From Promethearchaeota archaeon (GTDB lineage Archaea; Asgardarchaeota; Lokiarchaeia; Sigyniarchaeales; SOKP01), in assembly GCA_016839555.1 (NCBI GenBank), contig JAEOUA010000010.1, positions 32,001-96,000 of the forward strand: DNA of 64,000 bases, read 5' to 3'. Shown here in pieces: positions 7,162 through 19,484 of the stretch. The translations under genes were made by a program, and so were the position numbers. The notes beneath the pieces are model-generated. The model was given only the letters and a program-made list of their open reading frames with translations. It ran no database searches and was not told the origin of the DNA. The first letter of the stretch is position 1. Every line of letters begins with the position of its first letter.

Positions 7162-8091
7162 CTATAAAGAAGAATTCCATAATCTCTTTTTCAGCTTTTG
7201 AAATATCTCTTCTATTGATTTGCTTGCGGGCGCATTTGGATCATAATCTACAACGGGTTCAGCATTCGCCATTGCGTGAGCAATTTGCAAGTCAAAAGGA
7301 ATTCTTCCCAATATATCATATCCCGTTGATTCTATAAATTCTTGAAACTTTTTTTGAAAAGGACTTTTTAGATCTGCTTTATTAATCACAATTCCAAAGG
7401 GGATTTCAAATTGTTGTACCACTTCTATTGCTCGTTTTACATCATGAAGTCCCGAAGGTGTTGGTTCGCAGATAGTAATAACATAATCTAATCCTGAAAC
7501 AGTAGCAATTACAGGACAACCTATACCTGGAGGTCCATCGATCAGGATCAAGTTGGAGTCTTCATATTCCTCAAGATTTTGAGTAAATTCTTTACTTTCT
7601 GATACTAGTTTCCCCGAAGTCGTGCTCCCTAATTCAGTTCGACCATATACTAAGCGTGGTTCTTTCCTTGTTATATATGAAATTATTTCGCCGCTTTTTA
7701 CAGGATGGATTTCAAATGCATGTTCAGGACATAGAACTTTACAAGCCCCACAGCCCTCGCATGCTAAATAACTAATAATGGGAATCTCTTGCTCCTCATT
7801 CCAATTTAATGCGTGAAATTCACAAAAATTATCTTCAATACATTGTTTGCAGTGAACACATTTTTCTTCAATAAACGATGCTTTTAAGGTGGTGTAGGTG
7901 TCTTGTATGTCGATATTATGCTCATTTTCCGCAGGCAAAATTAATGCCAAATTTGGAGCGTCTACATCACAATCCATTATAATTGGATTAATATCGGGAT
8001 CATTACTTGCCAAACTGGCTAGGGAAGCTGTTAAAGAAGTTTTCCCCACACCGCCTTTTCCACTTATTATGCCTATTGCTTTCCTTTCCAT
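7162..8091 (-). CDS. MinD-superfamily P-loop ATPase with inserted 4Fe-4S ferredoxin domain (COG1149-type)
   Basis: SGKGGVGKT, DCDVDAPN, CVHCKQC, CEGCGAC..CP, DGPPGIGCP, EPTPSG. Confidence 0.9.
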   Translation of the reverse strand: MERKAIGIISGKGGVGKTSLTASLASLASNDPDINPIIMDCDVDAPNLALILPAENEHNIDIQDTYTTLKASFIEEKCVHCKQCIEDNFCEFHALNWNEEQEIPIISYLACEGCGACKVLCPEHAFEIHPVKSGEIISYITRKEPRLVYGRTELGSTTSGKLVSESKEFTQNLEEYEDSNLILIDGPPGIGCPVIATVSGLDYVITICEPTPSGLHDVKRAIEVVQQFEIPFGIVINKADLKSPFQKKFQEFIESTGYDILGRIPFDLQIAHAMANAEPVVDYDPNAPASKSIEEIFQKLKKRLWNSSL

Positions 8092-8092
8092 T

Positions 8093-9028
8093 TTATTCTT
8101 TCACTCCTTGCATATGGCTGTTTTTCAACCAAATTTTAAGGGCATCAAAAATTTTCAGAAATGCTTGATATCCCGCTCCATTTATGTCAAATTTTCCACT
8201 ATTGTCCATAAGTGGAATACCTTGACAATATGATTGTACAATTTCATCATCTAAAGGAATATCTCCCAATACTTCTATTTTTTGCTCCGCTAATTCTTGC
8301 AAAAATTCATCTTTAAATCCTAAAAGAGAAGATCTATTTACAATCGTTTTATAATCCTTTTTTAATAATTTGATTAATTCTATAATTCGTTCCAAATCCA
8401 GTTTTCCAAATTTAGTGGGTTCAGTTACCGGAATAATTTTATCTGCTTGATCTATTAATAGTTCGACATCGCAATGAGCCCCTGGTGCCGTGTCTAAGAT
8501 TACTATATCATATTTTTCTGGTTCATTTTCAAGTGTCGTATTAAGTTTGTCGAGAAGTGCTTCTACGACCGATGCAGAACGTGCTTCTGAGGGCTTTAAT
8601 TCTCCTACTAAGAGGTCAATATTATCTTTTTGCGACTCGTAAATCCATCCTAGAACTTTAGTATCTTCTTCAATAGCATCTTCTGGGCAAATTTTATAAC
8701 ATAACTTACACCCAGAACATAAATTTAAAAAAGGGATGGGATAAGAGTCTTTCACCCATAATAATGCATTAGTCGCACAATTTTGGGCGCAAAGTCCACA
8801 CTTTGAACATTTTTCTTTAAGAATTACGGGTTTAAAAAACATTACCGGCGTTTTATTTTCTAACTCTAAACCTAATAAAAGATTGGTATTTGGATTTTCC
8901 ACATCGCCATCAATAAGGAGCACCTTTTTTCCCTCATTTTTGAACATCGTGGCTAGATTCACGGCAATAAGGGTCTTTCCCGTGCCCCCTTTTCCCCCGC
9001 TTACACAAATTATTGGTGGTTTTGCCAT
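8093..9028 (-). CDS. MinD-superfamily P-loop ATPase with inserted 4Fe-4S ferredoxin domain (COG1149-type)
   Basis: GGKGGTGKT, DGDVENPN, CSKCGLC, CSGCKLC..CP, DTAPGAHC, VTEPT. Confidence 0.9.
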   Translation of the reverse strand: MAKPPIICVSGGKGGTGKTLIAVNLATMFKNEGKKVLLIDGDVENPNTNLLLGLELENKTPVMFFKPVILKEKCSKCGLCAQNCATNALLWVKDSYPIPFLNLCSGCKLCYKICPEDAIEEDTKVLGWIYESQKDNIDLLVGELKPSEARSASVVEALLDKLNTTLENEPEKYDIVILDTAPGAHCDVELLIDQADKIIPVTEPTKFGKLDLERIIELIKLLKKDYKTIVNRSSLLGFKDEFLQELAEQKIEVLGDIPLDDEIVQSYCQGIPLMDNSGKFDINGAGYQAFLKIFDALKIWLKNSHMQGVKE

Positions 9029-9064: not shown

Positions 9065-9508
9065 TTAAAATCTTCGGCGTCCCATTCCGCCACCCATACC
9101 ACGACCACCTCCCATTCCGCCGCCTCCCATACCATAGTGTGCGCCAACATTTGCCCGAGAAATTTCTTGAAGCTCACCTTTTAAATACATATCAATGGCT
9201 TGCTTCACGGTTAGTTGTTGGTTTGGGAGTTGATAGATTTTCAAATTGAGAGAAGTCAACCCTTGGGAAGCGTTTGGACCTAAAAATCCAACGATAACTT
9301 CTGAGGCACCGTTATTTCCAATGATTTGTGCCGCCTGAATTCCAGCACCACCCATCGCGCTGGCAGCAGAATTAGGTACTGTTTTAACCTCTTGAATCTC
9401 TCCATCTTCGACCGTGACAAAGGTAAATGATTGGCATCTTCCAAAACGAGGACTTACATTCGCAGAAATTCCTCCACTACCCATGGAGGGTAATCCTATA
9501 ATCGTCAT
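9065..9508 (-). CDS. NifB/NifX-family (FeMo-co-binding fold) protein with Gly/Met/Arg-rich tail
   Basis: SPRFGRC..F, GGAGIQAAQ, GPNA; C-terminal GMGGGGMGGGRG tail. Confidence 0.9.
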   Translation of the reverse strand: MTIIGLPSMGSGGISANVSPRFGRCQSFTFVTVEDGEIQEVKTVPNSAASAMGGAGIQAAQIIGNNGASEVIVGFLGPNASQGLTSLNLKIYQLPNQQLTVKQAIDMYLKGELQEISRANVGAHYGMGGGGMGGGRGMGGGMGRRRF

Positions 9509-9732: not shown

Positions 9733-11874
9733 ATGGAACAAAAAGAAGTTAAGCTCCTTACCATATCGCTAATTTTAGTGGGATTAACTCTTTCTATTTC
9801 TTTATTAGCATCGTATAAATATATTATGCAATATTCTATTGAGGATGTTTCAGTTCCAATATATTTTACCGTCCTTATGGCAATATTGCTATTAATTGTA
9901 ACTCCCAGTTATTTATACTTAGAACGCTATAATCCTCTTCTTAGCAGAATCAAACCTAAAAAAGTTAAAAATGAGAAGCCGAAGAAATTATCCAAAAAAC
10001 AAATACGAATAATTGAAGTGGCAATTACTTCTATTTTAATTATAAGTATAATGATTGTCTTTATATACTTTTATTTTACGAATTATGATTTTGCGAAGAT
10101 ACTTGAGCAATTTACCGTGCCAATTATGATAGTAATAGGATTAGAGGTCGCGGTACCAGTATTATTCATAATTTCGTTTTTTCTAAAGAAAAAATTTAAA
10201 GTTCTCGCAAGATTGTTTAGTTTGTTAACCCTCATATCATTAGTATCATTTTATTTTTATATTCCTTACATTCCTATCAATATAGAACCTAACCACCCAG
10301 ACCCATTATGGAATCATGGAGTTGTGACCCATATTCTCCCTTCTGCGAGTCACAATCGCTTCATAATAAAGACTTCCTTTGATATTCCCGTAGCTAATCC
10401 ACAATTAAGAATAAATGGAACGGATATTGATGGGGAAAAAATGGATACTAGAGGATACTTTTGGCGTTTTGATGCCCAGAATTTAACACCTAATACAACT
10501 TATCAATTATCGCTTCATTCTGGACCCATTCCCTTATGCTCGTCGTGGCCCTTAAAAACCTTTCCCGATCCAAATGCAGACGTGGATCATTTAAGAATTG
10601 TAATTTTTACTGGTTCTGGAGGGCATGATGCGTGCAGGTCTTGGTATGGGATGGGGCAAATGCCTCTCTCAATAAGAAAGAAAATCTTAAATAGGGCATT
10701 AGATTTTAAACCAGATATTTTAATTGGCACTGGAGATCAAATCTATTATGATCTATATTTTGGGAAAGGACCGAATATTCTTGGTCAATCTAGAAGAGCT
10801 ATACAGTATAATGGAAGATATATACCGTATTTACCAGTTTTAGGAACGAGTAATGAAATATTCCTTAAAAATGCGGTTGATTGTCAAATATCTTATTTAT
10901 ATGGGACAGCTTGTAGATCAATTCCAACCTATTTTATTTTAGATGACCATGAATATTTTGCGAACGACGAAGCTATCCCTGAGGATGATATAGACTGGTC
11001 ACTTTTATTTGTATGGGCTGATCCAACCGTAAAGGAAGGGATTTCTTTTCCCCCAAGTCCTTTACTCTTAGAGCTTGGAAGAATTGCACGAAGATTATAT
11101 TTACCAGAATTTCTCCCCGATGAAAATAGACCCTTGGATCTTCCCGATACAAATTTGGATGGAAGTGCAGAAAATACATCGGAATTTTTTGGTACGCTTC
11201 GTTATGGAAAACTAGTAGAAGGACTATTATATGATCTTAGAAGATACGTAACTCTCACCGGATCAAACGCGACATTTTTACCACCTAAAGCGGAGAATTG
11301 GATAGTTGATCGTATGGAAGCAGAAGATACGGAATATGTTATTAATATCTCCCCAATTAGTTTTGGTTGGAGCGCAGGAAAATGGCTTTCATGGTATCCT
11401 GATGTCAAAATAAAAGTGGATGGACAACCAACGCTCAGTAAATTCGAATATAAATTTGCATGGCAATCTGGATGGTTTCAACAACATAATCGAATATTAA
11501 ATGCCTCATTTAATATGGAGAACGCGACTGATTTGTTTCTCTGTGGTGATATGCATACCCAGGCTGCTGGATATATATTGAGAAGTGGTGAGCTAGATTT
11601 TTCATCGGATCCTATACCCTCTGTACTAGTGGGTTCTCTAGGGGCAGATGGGGGAAGCTATCCGTCGGGAGGGCTCAGAGGGATTGAAGCAATGCCGCCA
11701 AATGATCTATTAGTAGCGGAATTTCTCCCTAGCTATGAAAAGTCCGGTTTTGTGGTTGCTGATTTTACCCATACTGATATTACAGTAAGTTTTTTTGGAT
11801 GGCGTATGGATATGGATAATATTGACGAAATAGATACATTAACCCTTCATTACATCTTTAAAATTCCACGTTAA
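9733..11874 (+). CDS. PhoD-like metallophosphatase with multi-TM N-terminus
   Basis: GTGDQIYYD, LDDHEYFAND, LYDLRRY, CGDMH; 4-5 N-terminal hydrophobic helices. Confidence 0.75.
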   Translation: MEQKEVKLLTISLILVGLTLSISLLASYKYIMQYSIEDVSVPIYFTVLMAILLLIVTPSYLYLERYNPLLSRIKPKKVKNEKPKKLSKKQIRIIEVAITSILIISIMIVFIYFYFTNYDFAKILEQFTVPIMIVIGLEVAVPVLFIISFFLKKKFKVLARLFSLLTLISLVSFYFYIPYIPINIEPNHPDPLWNHGVVTHILPSASHNRFIIKTSFDIPVANPQLRINGTDIDGEKMDTRGYFWRFDAQNLTPNTTYQLSLHSGPIPLCSSWPLKTFPDPNADVDHLRIVIFTGSGGHDACRSWYGMGQMPLSIRKKILNRALDFKPDILIGTGDQIYYDLYFGKGPNILGQSRRAIQYNGRYIPYLPVLGTSNEIFLKNAVDCQISYLYGTACRSIPTYFILDDHEYFANDEAIPEDDIDWSLLFVWADPTVKEGISFPPSPLLLELGRIARRLYLPEFLPDENRPLDLPDTNLDGSAENTSEFFGTLRYGKLVEGLLYDLRRYVTLTGSNATFLPPKAENWIVDRMEAEDTEYVINISPISFGWSAGKWLSWYPDVKIKVDGQPTLSKFEYKFAWQSGWFQQHNRILNASFNMENATDLFLCGDMHTQAAGYILRSGELDFSSDPIPSVLVGSLGADGGSYPSGGLRGIEAMPPNDLLVAEFLPSYEKSGFVVADFTHTDITVSFFGWRMDMDNIDEIDTLTLHYIFKIPR

Positions 11875-11996
11875 GTCTTATTTAATTCTTTTTTTTTCAT
11901 TTCTAACTCTTTATTTAAAAGATATATTTTTTTCTCATGAAAACTGAATTTGAAAATAGATAAAAACGCAAAAAAAAGATAAATTAAAACTATTAT

Positions 11997-12815
11997 TTAT
12001 TCCGATTCCTTCCTAAAGGCAGTTAAAAATATTACTCCAAGCACGACAATTCCAATTCCAAACACTTGAATGAGAATGATTAATTCATTCAATGTGATAA
12101 TCCCTAAAAGAATTGAAAGACTAATGCTAGCAGAAGTGAAGCATGGTACGACTCTATTAGCTTTTGATTTAGCAAACGCAAATTGAGTCATAATTAAAGT
12201 GAGAACTGACATTATCATTGTCATGATGATGAAAATTATTTGCAAATAAGGATCTGGGATTGCGGTAACTCGTTTTGAGACGGTCTGAAATGCCATAAGA
12301 GTGCCAGCTGTACTTCCAAGGATTAAACCCGCCGCTTTGTAATTACTCATTTTTGAAATTATTATTAGGATACCTTCGAACAATAATAAAATAAAAAGAA
12401 TAATAATAAAATACAAAAAATTAAAATCACCTGATTGCACAGCACTCGGATTTGGATTAAAAGCTGTAGCAAGAATTACCCCTAAAACAATTAATATTAT
12501 GCCAAAAATTTCTATTTTAGTGATATTCTCATTTAAGACAAAATAAGAGAAAATTATTAACACAATCAATCCTAATCCTTCAAGAGGAGCAATAACATTG
12601 ATAGGAGCGAAAAAGAGAGCAATCCATTGGACAAACATATAAATGCTAGTAAGGATTGTCCCACCAATCCAAACGCCTGAATTTTTACCTTTAATCTTCT
12701 TCTCTGCTTTAAATCCTTCAATCGCCATTTTCTGTATCCCTTTGCCTAGGTTCAATAACACATACGCAACTAATCCTATAGAAATACCTATAACAATATT
12801 TTCTCCAATAACCAT
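11997..12815 (-). CDS. DMT-superfamily transporter (NIPA/Mg2+-transporter-like)
   Basis: LGKGIQK, W..G, ALFFAP..VIAPL, VLNE; about 9 TM helices. Confidence 0.7.
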   Translation of the reverse strand: MVIGENIVIGISIGLVAYVLLNLGKGIQKMAIEGFKAEKKIKGKNSGVWIGGTILTSIYMFVQWIALFFAPINVIAPLEGLGLIVLIIFSYFVLNENITKIEIFGIILIVLGVILATAFNPNPSAVQSGDFNFLYFIIILFILLLFEGILIIISKMSNYKAAGLILGSTAGTLMAFQTVSKRVTAIPDPYLQIIFIIMTMIMSVLTLIMTQFAFAKSKANRVVPCFTSASISLSILLGIITLNELIILIQVFGIGIVVLGVIFLTAFRKESE

Positions 12816-12858: not shown

Positions 12859-13953
12859 TTAATATTCTGGATATCCCTCAAAATCTTTTAATTCTTCTTG
12901 AATTTTTTCAGAATTTTTTATATCCGCCTCCGTTGGATACGGGACCTCTGCAAAAAGGTCCACATCAGGAAGATCCAGTTTCTTGCGTACTTTTTTCTCT
13001 TTTGGCCCAAATCCTACGCGAGGGGCAAAGAATTTGATTACCTTAAATTTCACTTTTGAGAACCATTTTTCCCATTCTTCAGCAAATCCACCATTTTCAA
13101 TATGCTTAAGAACATTTTTCTGTATATTAGCAATTTTTTCTACTACTTTATTATATTCTATTTCGTTACTTACAATCCCATATTGAGTCCTTTCAGGATA
13201 TGCTTGGATATATCTTGAGAGCCCGTATTCAGTTATTTTTTTATAAATTGATTTTAATTGTCCCGAAAGAATTAATTCAATCAAAACTGCATCGACAGAA
13301 TATCCCGCTTTCATTAAAATATTCATGGTCTCTAATAAAACCCTTCCAAACGAGGGACCAAATCCTTGTTCGGTGAAAAGATCTAAAACGGCTTCTTGCT
13401 TAAATGTGACTTCAATTGCTCCTAATTTGAGTGTTCCTAAGGCTTTACATAACGCTAATAAATTCTGTTTCGCTTCTCCAGAAGCATTTTGATGAACATT
13501 GATAAAACTAAAATAACTTTTTTTATTCAAAAAACGTTCTCTCACACCAATACCAATCATACGTGGAGCAATGAGTAACACATCTACAAAATCTGGTGGT
13601 TTCAGCAGATCAAAAGCAATATTATACCCGCTTGCAAATATTAAACTCTGGTTTTTATGTAAATTAGGTAAAATCTTTTCTTCAAATACCTCATTCATTA
13701 TCTCATCTGGAATTAAATAGAATAATATATCTGCCTTTTTAATAGCTTCTTCTATTGAATATACTTTAAATCCGTCTTTTTCTGCTCTCTGTTTATATTC
13801 ATCATCTCTATTGCCTACTATTACATCTAATCCAGAATCTCTCATGTTTAAAGCTTGAGATCTGCCTTGATTTCCATATCCTATCATCCCAACTATTTTA
13901 TTTGTTAAAATTGAAAGATCTCCATCTTTTTCATAATATATATTAGTTTTCAT
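12859..13953 (-). CDS. ilvC: Ketol-acid reductoisomerase family protein (copy A; NAD(P)H domain and DLFTEQ intact)
   Basis: GYGNQGRSQALNMRDSG, PDE, APRMIG, EAVLDLFTEQ, IENGGFAEEW. Confidence 0.85.
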   Translation of the reverse strand: MKTNIYYEKDGDLSILTNKIVGMIGYGNQGRSQALNMRDSGLDVIVGNRDDEYKQRAEKDGFKVYSIEEAIKKADILFYLIPDEIMNEVFEEKILPNLHKNQSLIFASGYNIAFDLLKPPDFVDVLLIAPRMIGIGVRERFLNKKSYFSFINVHQNASGEAKQNLLALCKALGTLKLGAIEVTFKQEAVLDLFTEQGFGPSFGRVLLETMNILMKAGYSVDAVLIELILSGQLKSIYKKITEYGLSRYIQAYPERTQYGIVSNEIEYNKVVEKIANIQKNVLKHIENGGFAEEWEKWFSKVKFKVIKFFAPRVGFGPKEKKVRKKLDLPDVDLFAEVPYPTEADIKNSEKIQEELKDFEGYPEY

Positions 13954-13987
13954 ATTTATTACTTTTTTATTCTATTTCTTCTAATTA

Positions 13988-15085
13988 TTAAAATTGGCTA
14001 TAAAATTTCTTATAAGTTTCATATGTAGTTCTTAGCTCTTTATATTTAGTTAATTGCTCTTTTGAGGGAAGCTTTAGTTCTTGTCCTTTCTCTGGTATTG
14101 AATAATTAAGATTTTTATAGACCTCTTGTTCTAATTTACTAAAATTAGTAGTAAAGGCAAAGTATTTCATAATATTTAATTTTGCAGTGTTTTTATAATG
14201 CTCCCACTCCTGTGAAAATTGACCTTTTTCAATATATTGCAAAATTTTTTTATGTATCTTATCAATATCGCCTCCTACTTTTGCATATTTAACCCCACGG
14301 CTTAAAGAACCATACTGAGATGTTTGGGAGTGAAAATTCATTTGCTTAATTAACCCCACATTAATCATTTTGTCGACTGTATAAATCATTTCTTCTGAAA
14401 GTATTAATTCAATATATATTGCCTCAGCGGGATAACCTGCTTCCATTAAATTTTTAATAGCCCTCATTAATACCTGATTAAAAGCTGCCCTAAAAGTTTG
14501 TTCAGCAAATAATTTTAAGCTGGTTTGTTGCATAAATGACATCTTAATTGCTGCTTTTTTTAAACCTCCAATCGCTTTTGTTAATGCTAATAAATGATTC
14601 AAGGCATTTCTAGAACTATTTTGAGTAATCCCGATAAAAGTAAAAAAGCCCTCTTTATTAATAAATTGTTTTCTTACGACCTCTCCAAGTGCAAGTGGAG
14701 TAATTAACAGTACATCAATATCTTTGGGAACTTCTATAGTGCTAAAAGCCACATAATATCCATCAGAAAAAATGAGTGTTTTTTGTTTATTCAAATGAGA
14801 AATTACTTGTTTTTCAAAAATTTCTTTCATATCTTTATCTGGGAGTAATAAAAATATGAAATCACCCCGTTTGACAGCCTCTGCAATAGAAAAGGTTTCA
14901 AAGCCATCTTTATCTGCTCGCATTTTATATTTTTCATTAGAAATGCCAATTATTACATTAAGTTCCGAATCTCTCATATTTAGCGCTTGAGCTTTTGCTT
15001 GATTTCCATACCCAATAACTGATATTGTTTTATTCTTTAAAAGGGATAAATCGGCATCATTCTCCCGAAAAATTGTAGTTTCCAT
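13988..15085 (-). CDS. ilvC: Ketol-acid reductoisomerase family protein (copy B; degenerate N-terminal site, HSQTSQYG intact)
   Basis: GYGNQAKAQALNMRDS, KLFAEQ, ELILSEE, HSQTSQYG, IEKGQFSQEW. Confidence 0.8.
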   Translation of the reverse strand: METTIFRENDADLSLLKNKTISVIGYGNQAKAQALNMRDSELNVIIGISNEKYKMRADKDGFETFSIAEAVKRGDFIFLLLPDKDMKEIFEKQVISHLNKQKTLIFSDGYYVAFSTIEVPKDIDVLLITPLALGEVVRKQFINKEGFFTFIGITQNSSRNALNHLLALTKAIGGLKKAAIKMSFMQQTSLKLFAEQTFRAAFNQVLMRAIKNLMEAGYPAEAIYIELILSEEMIYTVDKMINVGLIKQMNFHSQTSQYGSLSRGVKYAKVGGDIDKIHKKILQYIEKGQFSQEWEHYKNTAKLNIMKYFAFTTNFSKLEQEVYKNLNYSIPEKGQELKLPSKEQLTKYKELRTTYETYKKFYSQF

Positions 15086-15490: not shown

Positions 15491-16033
15491 ATAGAATATC
15501 GTACATATAAGATATGCATTGTTGGTGATGGAGGTGTAGGTAAGACCACAATCGTCCATCGCTATGTAGATGATATATTTTTAGATGATACAAAAATTAC
15601 AATCGGTACCAATTTATTTGTGAAAAGAATAGACCTCCCTAACAAAAAGAAGAAAATTACGCTTCAGATTTGGGATTTGGGTGGTGAAGCAAAATTCGAA
15701 GGCATAAGAAATAGCTTCTATGCTGGAGCGAATGGTATTATTTATACATTTGATTTAACTAGAAGATTTTCACTGATGAATTTAAGTAAATGGAAGACTG
15801 AAATTGAACGAGTTATAGGATCTAAACCTAGTGTGTTAGTAGGAAATAAGCTCGATTTAGTGAAGTATGATAATGAGAGACCGATTCCAGAAAGTGAAGG
15901 AGAAAAAATAAAAGAGGAATTAGGATGCAGCTATTATTTAGAAACCTCCGCAAAAGAAGATGTGAGAATAGATAAAGCATTTCTAAAGCTTTCTGAACTT
16001 ATTTTAAATACATATAAACCATTAGATTATTAG
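15491..16033 (+). CDS. Rab-like small GTPase; real N-terminus extends upstream of the ORF-track GTG (probable ATA start)
   Basis: In-frame from 15491: IEYRTYKICIVGDGGVGKTT..TIG..WDLGGE..GNKLD..ETSAK; in-frame TAG at 15479-15481; no C-terminal prenylation Cys. Confidence 0.9.
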   Translation: MEYRTYKICIVGDGGVGKTTIVHRYVDDIFLDDTKITIGTNLFVKRIDLPNKKKKITLQIWDLGGEAKFEGIRNSFYAGANGIIYTFDLTRRFSLMNLSKWKTEIERVIGSKPSVLVGNKLDLVKYDNERPIPESEGEKIKEELGCSYYLETSAKEDVRIDKAFLKLSELILNTYKPLDY

Positions 16034-17562: not shown

Positions 17563-18423
17563 ATGTCAAATAAAACGGCGACAGTCTTCATACAATGCCC
17601 TATATGCCATAAGAGCGGTACAATAGAAGTAAAAAAAAAAGAAATAGAACGAAGTCCTACGGGCTTAACAACTATTGAAATAAAAGAAGATATCTGTGAG
17701 CACCGATTTTTAGTTTATGTTGATAAAAATTTTAAAATGCGAGAAAGCGAAAAATTAGACTTCATTCAATCTCCAGATATAGTATTTGAAATCCAAAAAG
17801 GAAAAGAAGCAATCTTTGATAAGGATCAAATGAATGTGATTAAATTATATGTGTATCCATTAACTCTTAGTTATATCTTAAAATGTTTAATGTTTAATCA
17901 AAAAATAGGAATTCTCATTAATGATAATAAGCCTTTTTTAAAAAGAATCTATAAAACTCTTTTTAATTATCTTTTTGAAGGTGCTTTTTCGATAGACTAT
18001 CAAATTTTACCCTATAGTGAATTTATTTCAGCAAAAAATAATATAGATTTACCAATTATTATTAGAGATATAGATATTTTGCGAGATCAAAACAATTTTC
18101 TTACTGGTGCTGATCTTGCGGTGGAAAGGGGATTTGTGAAGAAATTTTATAATGAAAAATATGGTATTGAGACCTTAAAAGCGTTGAAAATGGAAATAAA
18201 AAATGCGTTTATTTTAGCAAGTTCAATCAAAGAACTTATAATAATGAAAAAAAAGTTAAATATACACAAAATAATAAATTTTTTACAAAAACAATTTAAC
18301 ATTAAAGTCAATATACGCTATGCGGAATTTCTATTAGACATATTAAAATATTATTATCATATCAATCTAAAAGGGATCTATAAAAATGTAGAATTTTTGA
18401 AATTTAAAAAATTAGGAAAATAG
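17563..18423 (+). CDS. Hypothetical protein with N-terminal Zn-binding CPxC..CxH domain (tandem paralogue 1)
   Basis: CPICHK..ICEHRFLVYVDKNF; strongly similar to 18627..19484. Confidence 0.8.
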   Translation: MSNKTATVFIQCPICHKSGTIEVKKKEIERSPTGLTTIEIKEDICEHRFLVYVDKNFKMRESEKLDFIQSPDIVFEIQKGKEAIFDKDQMNVIKLYVYPLTLSYILKCLMFNQKIGILINDNKPFLKRIYKTLFNYLFEGAFSIDYQILPYSEFISAKNNIDLPIIIRDIDILRDQNNFLTGADLAVERGFVKKFYNEKYGIETLKALKMEIKNAFILASSIKELIIMKKKLNIHKIINFLQKQFNIKVNIRYAEFLLDILKYYYHINLKGIYKNVEFLKFKKLGK

Positions 18424-18626: not shown

Positions 18627-19484
18627 ATGTCAAATAAAAAACAGGTTTTTATTCAATGTCCCGTATGTAAAAAAAGTGGTAAAATTGAAGTACCGAAAAA
18701 AAAAATAGAGGAAAAAAGTTCAGGGTTAAGCATAATAATTGTCAAGAAACTAATCTGTGAACATGTTTTTCTAGCTTATATTGACAAGAATTTCATAATG
18801 CGTGAAAGTGAAGAAGTATATTATGTACCTTCTCCAGAAATTATTGAGAAATCTAAAGAAATTAAGGAGGAATTTTTTGATGATCATGAAATGGTTATGA
18901 TTCAAATGAATCTCTATCCATTAACTCTTAGTTATATCCTAAAATGTTTTTTAAATAATCAATCTGTGGGGATAATTTTAGAAGAAAATCAAGATTTCTT
19001 AAAACCTACTTATGAGAAATTATTCAATTATCTGTTTAATAGGACTTTTGAAATTAATTATCAAATTTTATCTGAATATGATTATTCTAATTTAAAAAAT
19101 GAATTGGATTTACCCATTATTATTAAAAATGTAGAAATTTTAAAAGATGAACACGGTTTTTTAACCGAAAATGAATTTGCAGTTGAGAGGGGTTTTATTA
19201 ATAAATTTTATAATGAGAATTATGGGCGCGACACCTTAAAGGCTCTAAAATTGGAAATTAATAATGCATTTATGTTAGCAAATACAACAAAAAATTATAT
19301 AACTAATAATAAAAAGTTGAATCTAAATAAAATAATAAAATATTTAGAAAATGAGTTTAAAATCAATGTCGATATAAAATATGCTGAGTTTTTACTAGAA
19401 ATCATAAAAAATTATTTTAATCTAGAAGTGAAATCAATATATAAGAATGTGGAGTTTCTTAAATTTAAGAAATTAAGCAAATAA
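18627..19484 (+). CDS. Hypothetical protein with N-terminal Zn-binding CPxC..CxH domain (tandem paralogue 2)
   Basis: CPVCKK..ICEHVFLAYIDKNF; shared LYPLTLSYILKC, AVERGF, IYKNVEFLKFKKL. Confidence 0.8.
   Translation: MSNKKQVFIQCPVCKKSGKIEVPKKKIEEKSSGLSIIIVKKLICEHVFLAYIDKNFIMRESEEVYYVPSPEIIEKSKEIKEEFFDDHEMVMIQMNLYPLTLSYILKCFLNNQSVGIILEENQDFLKPTYEKLFNYLFNRTFEINYQILSEYDYSNLKNELDLPIIIKNVEILKDEHGFLTENEFAVERGFINKFYNENYGRDTLKALKLEINNAFMLANTTKNYITNNKKLNLNKIIKYLENEFKINVDIKYAEFLLEIIKNYFNLEVKSIYKNVEFLKFKKLSK

Follow-up and report, generated by a model that had tools for sequence, protein, structure and literature searches.

Results

We analysed a window of 64,000 nucleotides from a Promethearchaeota archaeon (GCA_016839555.1, contig JAEOUA010000010.1, positions 32,001 to 96,000 of the forward strand; positions below refer to the window). 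Its minus strand carries two co-oriented genes for proteins similar to ketol-acid reductoisomerase (KARI), the upstream gene B (13988..15085, 365 aa) and the downstream gene A (12859..13953, 364 aa), which are separated by an A/T-rich spacer of 34 nt (13954..13987) between the B stop codon and the A start codon. The short spacing fits co-transcription. A membrane transporter of 272 aa (11997..12815) follows 43 nt downstream of A on the same strand and may be co-transcribed, with a Pfam hit to NIPA Mg-transporters at 31.5 bits, above the cut-off, and a weak EamA hit. No ilv gene lies within about 6 kb. The DNA occurs in marine-sediment and marsh metagenomes.

A and B are 41% identical over their full length and each contain one KARI_N domain (PF07991; 4.7e-54 and 182.8 bits for A, 2.3e-48 and 164.4 bits for B) and one KARI_C domain (PF01450; 41 and 55.1 bits, respectively). 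Both proteins, however, score below the curated ilvC equivalog cut-offs, with 215.0 (A) and 204.6 bits (B) against 226.15 bits for TIGR00465 and 236.6 (A) and 233.4 bits (B) against 336 bits for NF004017. AF2 predicted both proteins with high confidence as complete KARI folds (pLDDT 91.9 for A and 94.7 for B), and the B model superposes on solved class I KARIs at TM 0.8-0.9. The best PDB sequence match for A is Sso-KARI of Sulfolobus solfataricus (6jcv, 8.2e-64), which shares the unusual signatures FASGYN and APRM with A, HSxTSQYG with B, and a two-residue insertion between the positions of the two late glutamates (E-x5-E) with both.

The two proteins have lost opposite parts of the catalytic site. 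A keeps the motifs GYGNQG, PDE, FASGYN, APRM, and DLFTEQ, including the Mg ligands E187, D191 (13381-13383), and E195 (13369-13371), but has ELILSGQ, with Q232 (13258-13260) at the second glutamate, and YPERTQYG, with Y252, P253 (13195-13197), and R255 (13189-13191) in place of the H-S-x-T loop. B shows the reverse pattern. Its motifs GYGNQA, PDK, TPLAL, and KLFAEQ place A30, K84, L131, and K191 (14513-14515) where A has G30, E84, R131, and D191, together with D108 and Q187 where A has S108 and E187, whereas ELILSEE and HSQTSQYG preserve E226 (14408-14410), E232 (14390-14392), H252, S253 (14327-14329), and T255 (14321-14323).

To analyse whether this pattern is conserved, we searched a collection of 5.8 billion proteins, added genome-derived sequences, and aligned the resulting 246 proteins, which were classified by these positions into 141 intact, 39 A-type, 47 B-type, and 19 canonical proteins. 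D191 and E195 are kept in 39/39 A-type proteins, as are the PDE and APR motifs in all of them and E226 in 39/39, while E232 and T255 are kept in 0/39 and S253 in 6/39. In contrast, D191 is kept in 0/47 and E195 in 20/47 B-type proteins, and the PDE and APR motifs are degraded, but E226 is kept in 47/47 and E232, S253, and T255 in all 46 B-type proteins that cover the region. The last position of GxGxxG is G in 33/39 A-type and A in 41/47 B-type proteins. Retention of positions that are at least 90% conserved in 106 intact Asgard relatives is a mirror image, with 0.94 (A) and 0.74 (B) in the N domain, 0.78 and 0.58 in residues 184-225, and 0.50 and 0.79 in residues 226-270. The only positions invariant in intact relatives that are lost in A and kept in B are E232, H252, S253, and T255, whereas G30, N48, D51, E84, A129, M132, I133, E187, D191, G199, and F358, which lie in the cofactor loop, the catalytic loop, and the cis metal ligands, are lost in B and kept in A.

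Among 400 genomes of the phylum, 11 carry the tandem pair, always in the order B then A and with the complementary pattern, and in each of them, as in the genome studied here, the pair is the only KARI homologue. These genomes fall into at least three families of the sample. Spacing between the two genes is usually between -14 and about +60 nt, but is 2.8 kb in one genome. About 30 single-copy genes that we inspected, including all those most similar to A, are intact, and no inspected genome carried A or B alone. The recurrence of the complementary pattern is far beyond chance.

In a maximum-likelihood tree of 140 proteins, A (support 99) and B (support 100) are each monophyletic, have parallel internal topologies, and nest inside the intact Asgard clade that is related to Sso-KARI. 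This Asgard clade carries an extra C-terminal tail of about 35 residues. A small group of intact single copies from one genus (motif ELVYSGE) is drawn as sister to A (support 92), but an exclusive A+B clade is not rejected (AU p = 0.43), which leaves the exact timing of the duplication unresolved. A-A and B-B distances across the same 10 genomes correlate at r = 0.86. In these genomes, the Rossmann domain of B is less conserved than that of A in 45 of 45 genome pairs (identity 0.496 against 0.648), while the knotted domains are equally conserved (0.570 and 0.573). In the least saturated pair, the only one for which dS was not saturated, omega is 0.08 for A and 0.19 for B, with 0.25 in the N domain and 0.13 in the C domain of B. 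B is therefore relaxed but clearly not a pseudogene.

The physiological role is uncertain. The pairs in 10 other genomes are also not located beside ilv genes, while canonical ilvC in related genomes sits directly beside ilvD. Recurrent neighbours are an Nramp-like metal transporter directly upstream of B in five genomes, ADP-forming acyl-CoA synthetase alpha and beta subunits, enoyl-CoA hydratases, SCP2, and aldehyde:ferredoxin oxidoreductase, and some intact relatives are fused to SCP2. The transporter downstream of A is not conserved among the pairs. The genome studied here encodes IlvD (two copies), 2-isopropylmalate synthase (LeuA), citramalate synthase (CimA), IlvE, and four AHAS-like enzymes, but no ALS small subunit was found.

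Discussion

Here, we provide comparative sequence evidence that two neighbouring KARI-like proteins of Asgard archaea have undergone complementary loss of a catalytic site that in class I KARIs is built by two chains. According to published class I structures, Mg(I) is bound by D191 and E195 and Mg(II) by D191, E227, and E231 (Sac-KARI numbering), with D191 and E227/E231 of one site located on different chains (PMC5940873). [quoted passage not shown] That S253 and T255 also act in trans is an inference from the KARI-fold enzyme ApnO, in which His222', sequence-equivalent to KARI Glu230, and the conserved carboxylate-binding Ser239' come from the other subunit (PMC13753588), and from the probable arrangement in class II enzymes.

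These findings support the original prediction that each paralogue lost the half-site that the other kept and that the pair probably functions as an obligate heterodimer. Three details of this prediction need correction. Loss of the arginine or lysine of the APR(K/R) motif in B, regarded as part of the pattern, is peculiar to this genome, as 46 of 47 B-type proteins keep R or K at this position. GxGxxA alone does not abolish nucleotide binding. The downstream transporter, proposed as a hint at a different substrate, is weak grounds for this given its lack of conservation, although other evidence does leave the physiological substrate open.

The most likely explanation, which we favour with fair confidence although it rests on comparative sequence evidence without physical evidence of a complex, is that B and A descend from a single duplication of an intact, homodimeric class I KARI of the Sso-KARI type and now form an obligate A/B heterodimer. 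The two knotted C-terminal domains would intertwine as in any class I KARI. The inferred live pocket uses the Rossmann domain of A for NAD(P)H, the catalytic loop of A (S108, R131), and E187/D191/E195 of A, and in trans E226/E232 of B for the second Mg2+ and H252-S253-x-T255 of B for the substrate carboxylate. The reciprocal pocket, composed of the Rossmann domain and Q187/K191 of B with Q232/P253/R255 of A, is inferred to be unable to bind the bridging metals and to be dead, although B keeps GxGxxA, D83, and usually R131, so that its pocket may retain some nucleotide binding or another role. A/A and B/B homodimers would each lack one half of every site. Strict conservation in B of residues that only make sense opposite an intact D191/E195 pocket, and the reverse in A, is hard to explain unless A and B pair. 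As the composite site reproduces every residue of the intact relatives, the reaction is most likely the Mg2+-dependent alkyl migration plus NAD(P)H reduction of acetohydroxy acids.

Other explanations are less well supported. It is possible, though less likely, that the heterodimer acts on a substrate other than acetolactate or acetohydroxybutyrate, such as another 2-keto or 2-hydroxy acid linked to the fermentative acyl-CoA metabolism of these archaea, in which case the whole Asgard single-copy clade would not be the branched-chain amino-acid KARI. In accordance with this, the pair and its intact relatives are never next to ilvB, ilvN, or ilvD, two genomes carry both a canonical ilvC and an intact Asgard-type copy, and both proteins score below the ilvC equivalog cut-offs. 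In addition, presence of this subfamily does not track LeuA or IlvD among 40 relatives, many near-complete relatives have IlvD and LeuA but no KARI and some genomes with the pair lack LeuA. The recurrent acyl-CoA-related neighbours and the SCP2 fusions point in the same direction. However, the composite site keeps every residue of Sso-KARI, which appears to be active on 2-acetolactate in vitro, and the genome encodes IlvD, LeuA, CimA, IlvE, and AHAS-like enzymes but no other KARI. A ketopantoate reductase role is unlikely, because no PanB was found and a PanE-like gene is present.

It is improbable that A and B do not pair and instead form homodimers with new functions, for example A as a one-metal 2-keto-acid reductase and B as a non-catalytic binding or regulatory protein. 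Both proteins are confidently predicted to fold as complete KARIs, B keeps GxGxxA, D83, and mostly R131, and the genes are 2.8 kb apart in one genome. Yet in a B/B dimer the strictly conserved E226, E232, S253, and T255 would face a pocket lacking D191 and E187, so there would be no reason to conserve them, and the same holds for D191/E195 in an A/A dimer. The congruent trees, the tight gene spacing, and the absence of A or B alone from the inspected genomes further argue against this hypothesis. Decay of B towards a pseudogene, with A alone carrying whatever function remains, is very unlikely. B evolves about 1.2 times faster overall, and faster still in its N domain, and in this genome has lost even R131, but it is intact in 47 database clusters spanning several Asgard classes, has an omega well below 1, and has a knotted domain as conserved as that of A, while A alone lacks a Mg ligand and the carboxylate-binding loop.

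Sso-KARI (6jcv/6jd2) and Sac-KARI (5yeq) have the same two-chain active-site architecture but are homo-oligomers in which every chain carries both half-sites. In class II KARI (Escherichia coli IlvC 1yrl, plant KARI), two non-identical knot halves of one chain of about 490 aa build one site. The proposed A/B arrangement is functionally that of class II KARI, but reached by duplication of the gene rather than the domain, with products that stay separate, about 365 aa and one KARI_C domain per protein, and an orphan Rossmann domain under relaxed constraint in B. No B-A fusion appeared among the 150 best cluster representatives. An engineered Ignisphaera KARI with a duplicated knot domain (5e4r), the best PDB sequence hit for B and matching it with both copies, shows that a class I dimer interface can be replaced by two tandem knot copies, but is an artificial single chain with copies of identical sequence. 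The repurposed KARI-fold enzymes BurG (7pco) and ApnO (PMC13753588) also have a binuclear metal site that uses residues of the second subunit, yet they are homodimers with altered chemistry, while the composite site of the A/B pair is unaltered relative to intact KARIs. More speculatively, and with low probability, the orphan Rossmann domain of B could have taken on a new role in nucleotide or redox sensing or in allosteric control of the single live site, and the enzyme would then serve a fermentative or metal-dependent pathway rather than ordinary branched-chain amino-acid synthesis. The recurrent pairing with divalent-metal transporters (Nramp-like, NIPA-like) and acyl-CoA genes points that way.

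KARI is a heavily studied drug and herbicide target and a workhorse of biofuel engineering. In the literature searched, it has been described only as a homo-oligomer (class I) or as a chain with duplicated domains (class II), and we found no report of a heteromeric KARI and nothing relevant on KARI in Asgard archaea or on paralogue or pseudoenzyme KARI. About 86 database proteins labelled "ketol-acid reductoisomerase" or "NAD(P)-binding protein" are predicted to be inactive alone. A conserved two-gene KARI with one live and one dead site would be a third architecture of this enzyme and a clean natural case of a homodimer becoming an obligate heterodimer through complementary loss after duplication, which would parallel, as separate genes, the route that produced class II enzymes.

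Genomic neighbourhood of the gene pair

In five pair-bearing genomes from two families (our genomes G107, G112, G030, G097, and G117), a membrane protein of about 480 aa without a Pfam hit is encoded directly upstream of B and in the same orientation (in G107 at positions 11045-12481 of locus L034), and it is also found nearby in G014. Protein-language-model features place this protein with Nramp/MntH divalent-metal transporters (score 0.98). The genome studied here has no homologue of it, but instead has a NIPA-like Mg-transporter gene after A. It is thus possible that the pair is linked to metal supply.

A second recurrent context is apparent at L048:2396-7129 (genome G001), L038:6704-8815 (G030), and loci L039, L040, and L047. 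Genes for ADP-forming acyl-CoA synthetase alpha and beta subunits, two enoyl-CoA hydratases, and SCP2 lie directly upstream of B-A in G001, and the same genes lie near intact single copies in other genomes. Aldehyde:ferredoxin oxidoreductase is adjacent in four genomes. In addition, three intact relatives (proteins P0192-P0194, about 510 aa) are fused to an SCP2 domain.

Two more tandem paralogue pairs lie near A and B in the window. One, at 17563-18423 and 18627-19484 (+), is a pair of 285-aa proteins with an N-terminal Cys motif and no Pfam hit. The other, at 7162-8091 and 8093-9028 (-), is a pair of MinD/ParA-type ATPases with inserted 4Fe-4S ferredoxin domains, located next to a Nitro_FeMo-Co (NifX-like) gene at 9065-9508. 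The Ras/Rab-like GTPase ORF at 15620-16033 (+), read from its first canonical start, matches the Pfam Ras profile only from position 43, and the P-loop must therefore lie upstream of any ATG, GTG, or TTG.

Distribution of KARI types among relatives

Several near-complete related genomes (among G008-G011, G015, G018, and G020-G022) encode LeuA, and most of them also IlvD, above the curated cut-offs, yet show no KARI homologue of any type. This may represent a 'missing KARI', or these enzymes may serve another purpose there.

The closest intact relatives of the A clade are intact single-copy KARIs with the motif ELVYSGE or ELIYSGE, which are 56-59% identical to A and were found in genomes G250, G269, G273, and G274 (loci L039, L047, L062, and L040). 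Genera g1 and g2 of our sample each mix different KARI types, which suggests replacement or differential loss. The intact single-copy KARIs closest to A may mark the state just before the duplication, or just after it.
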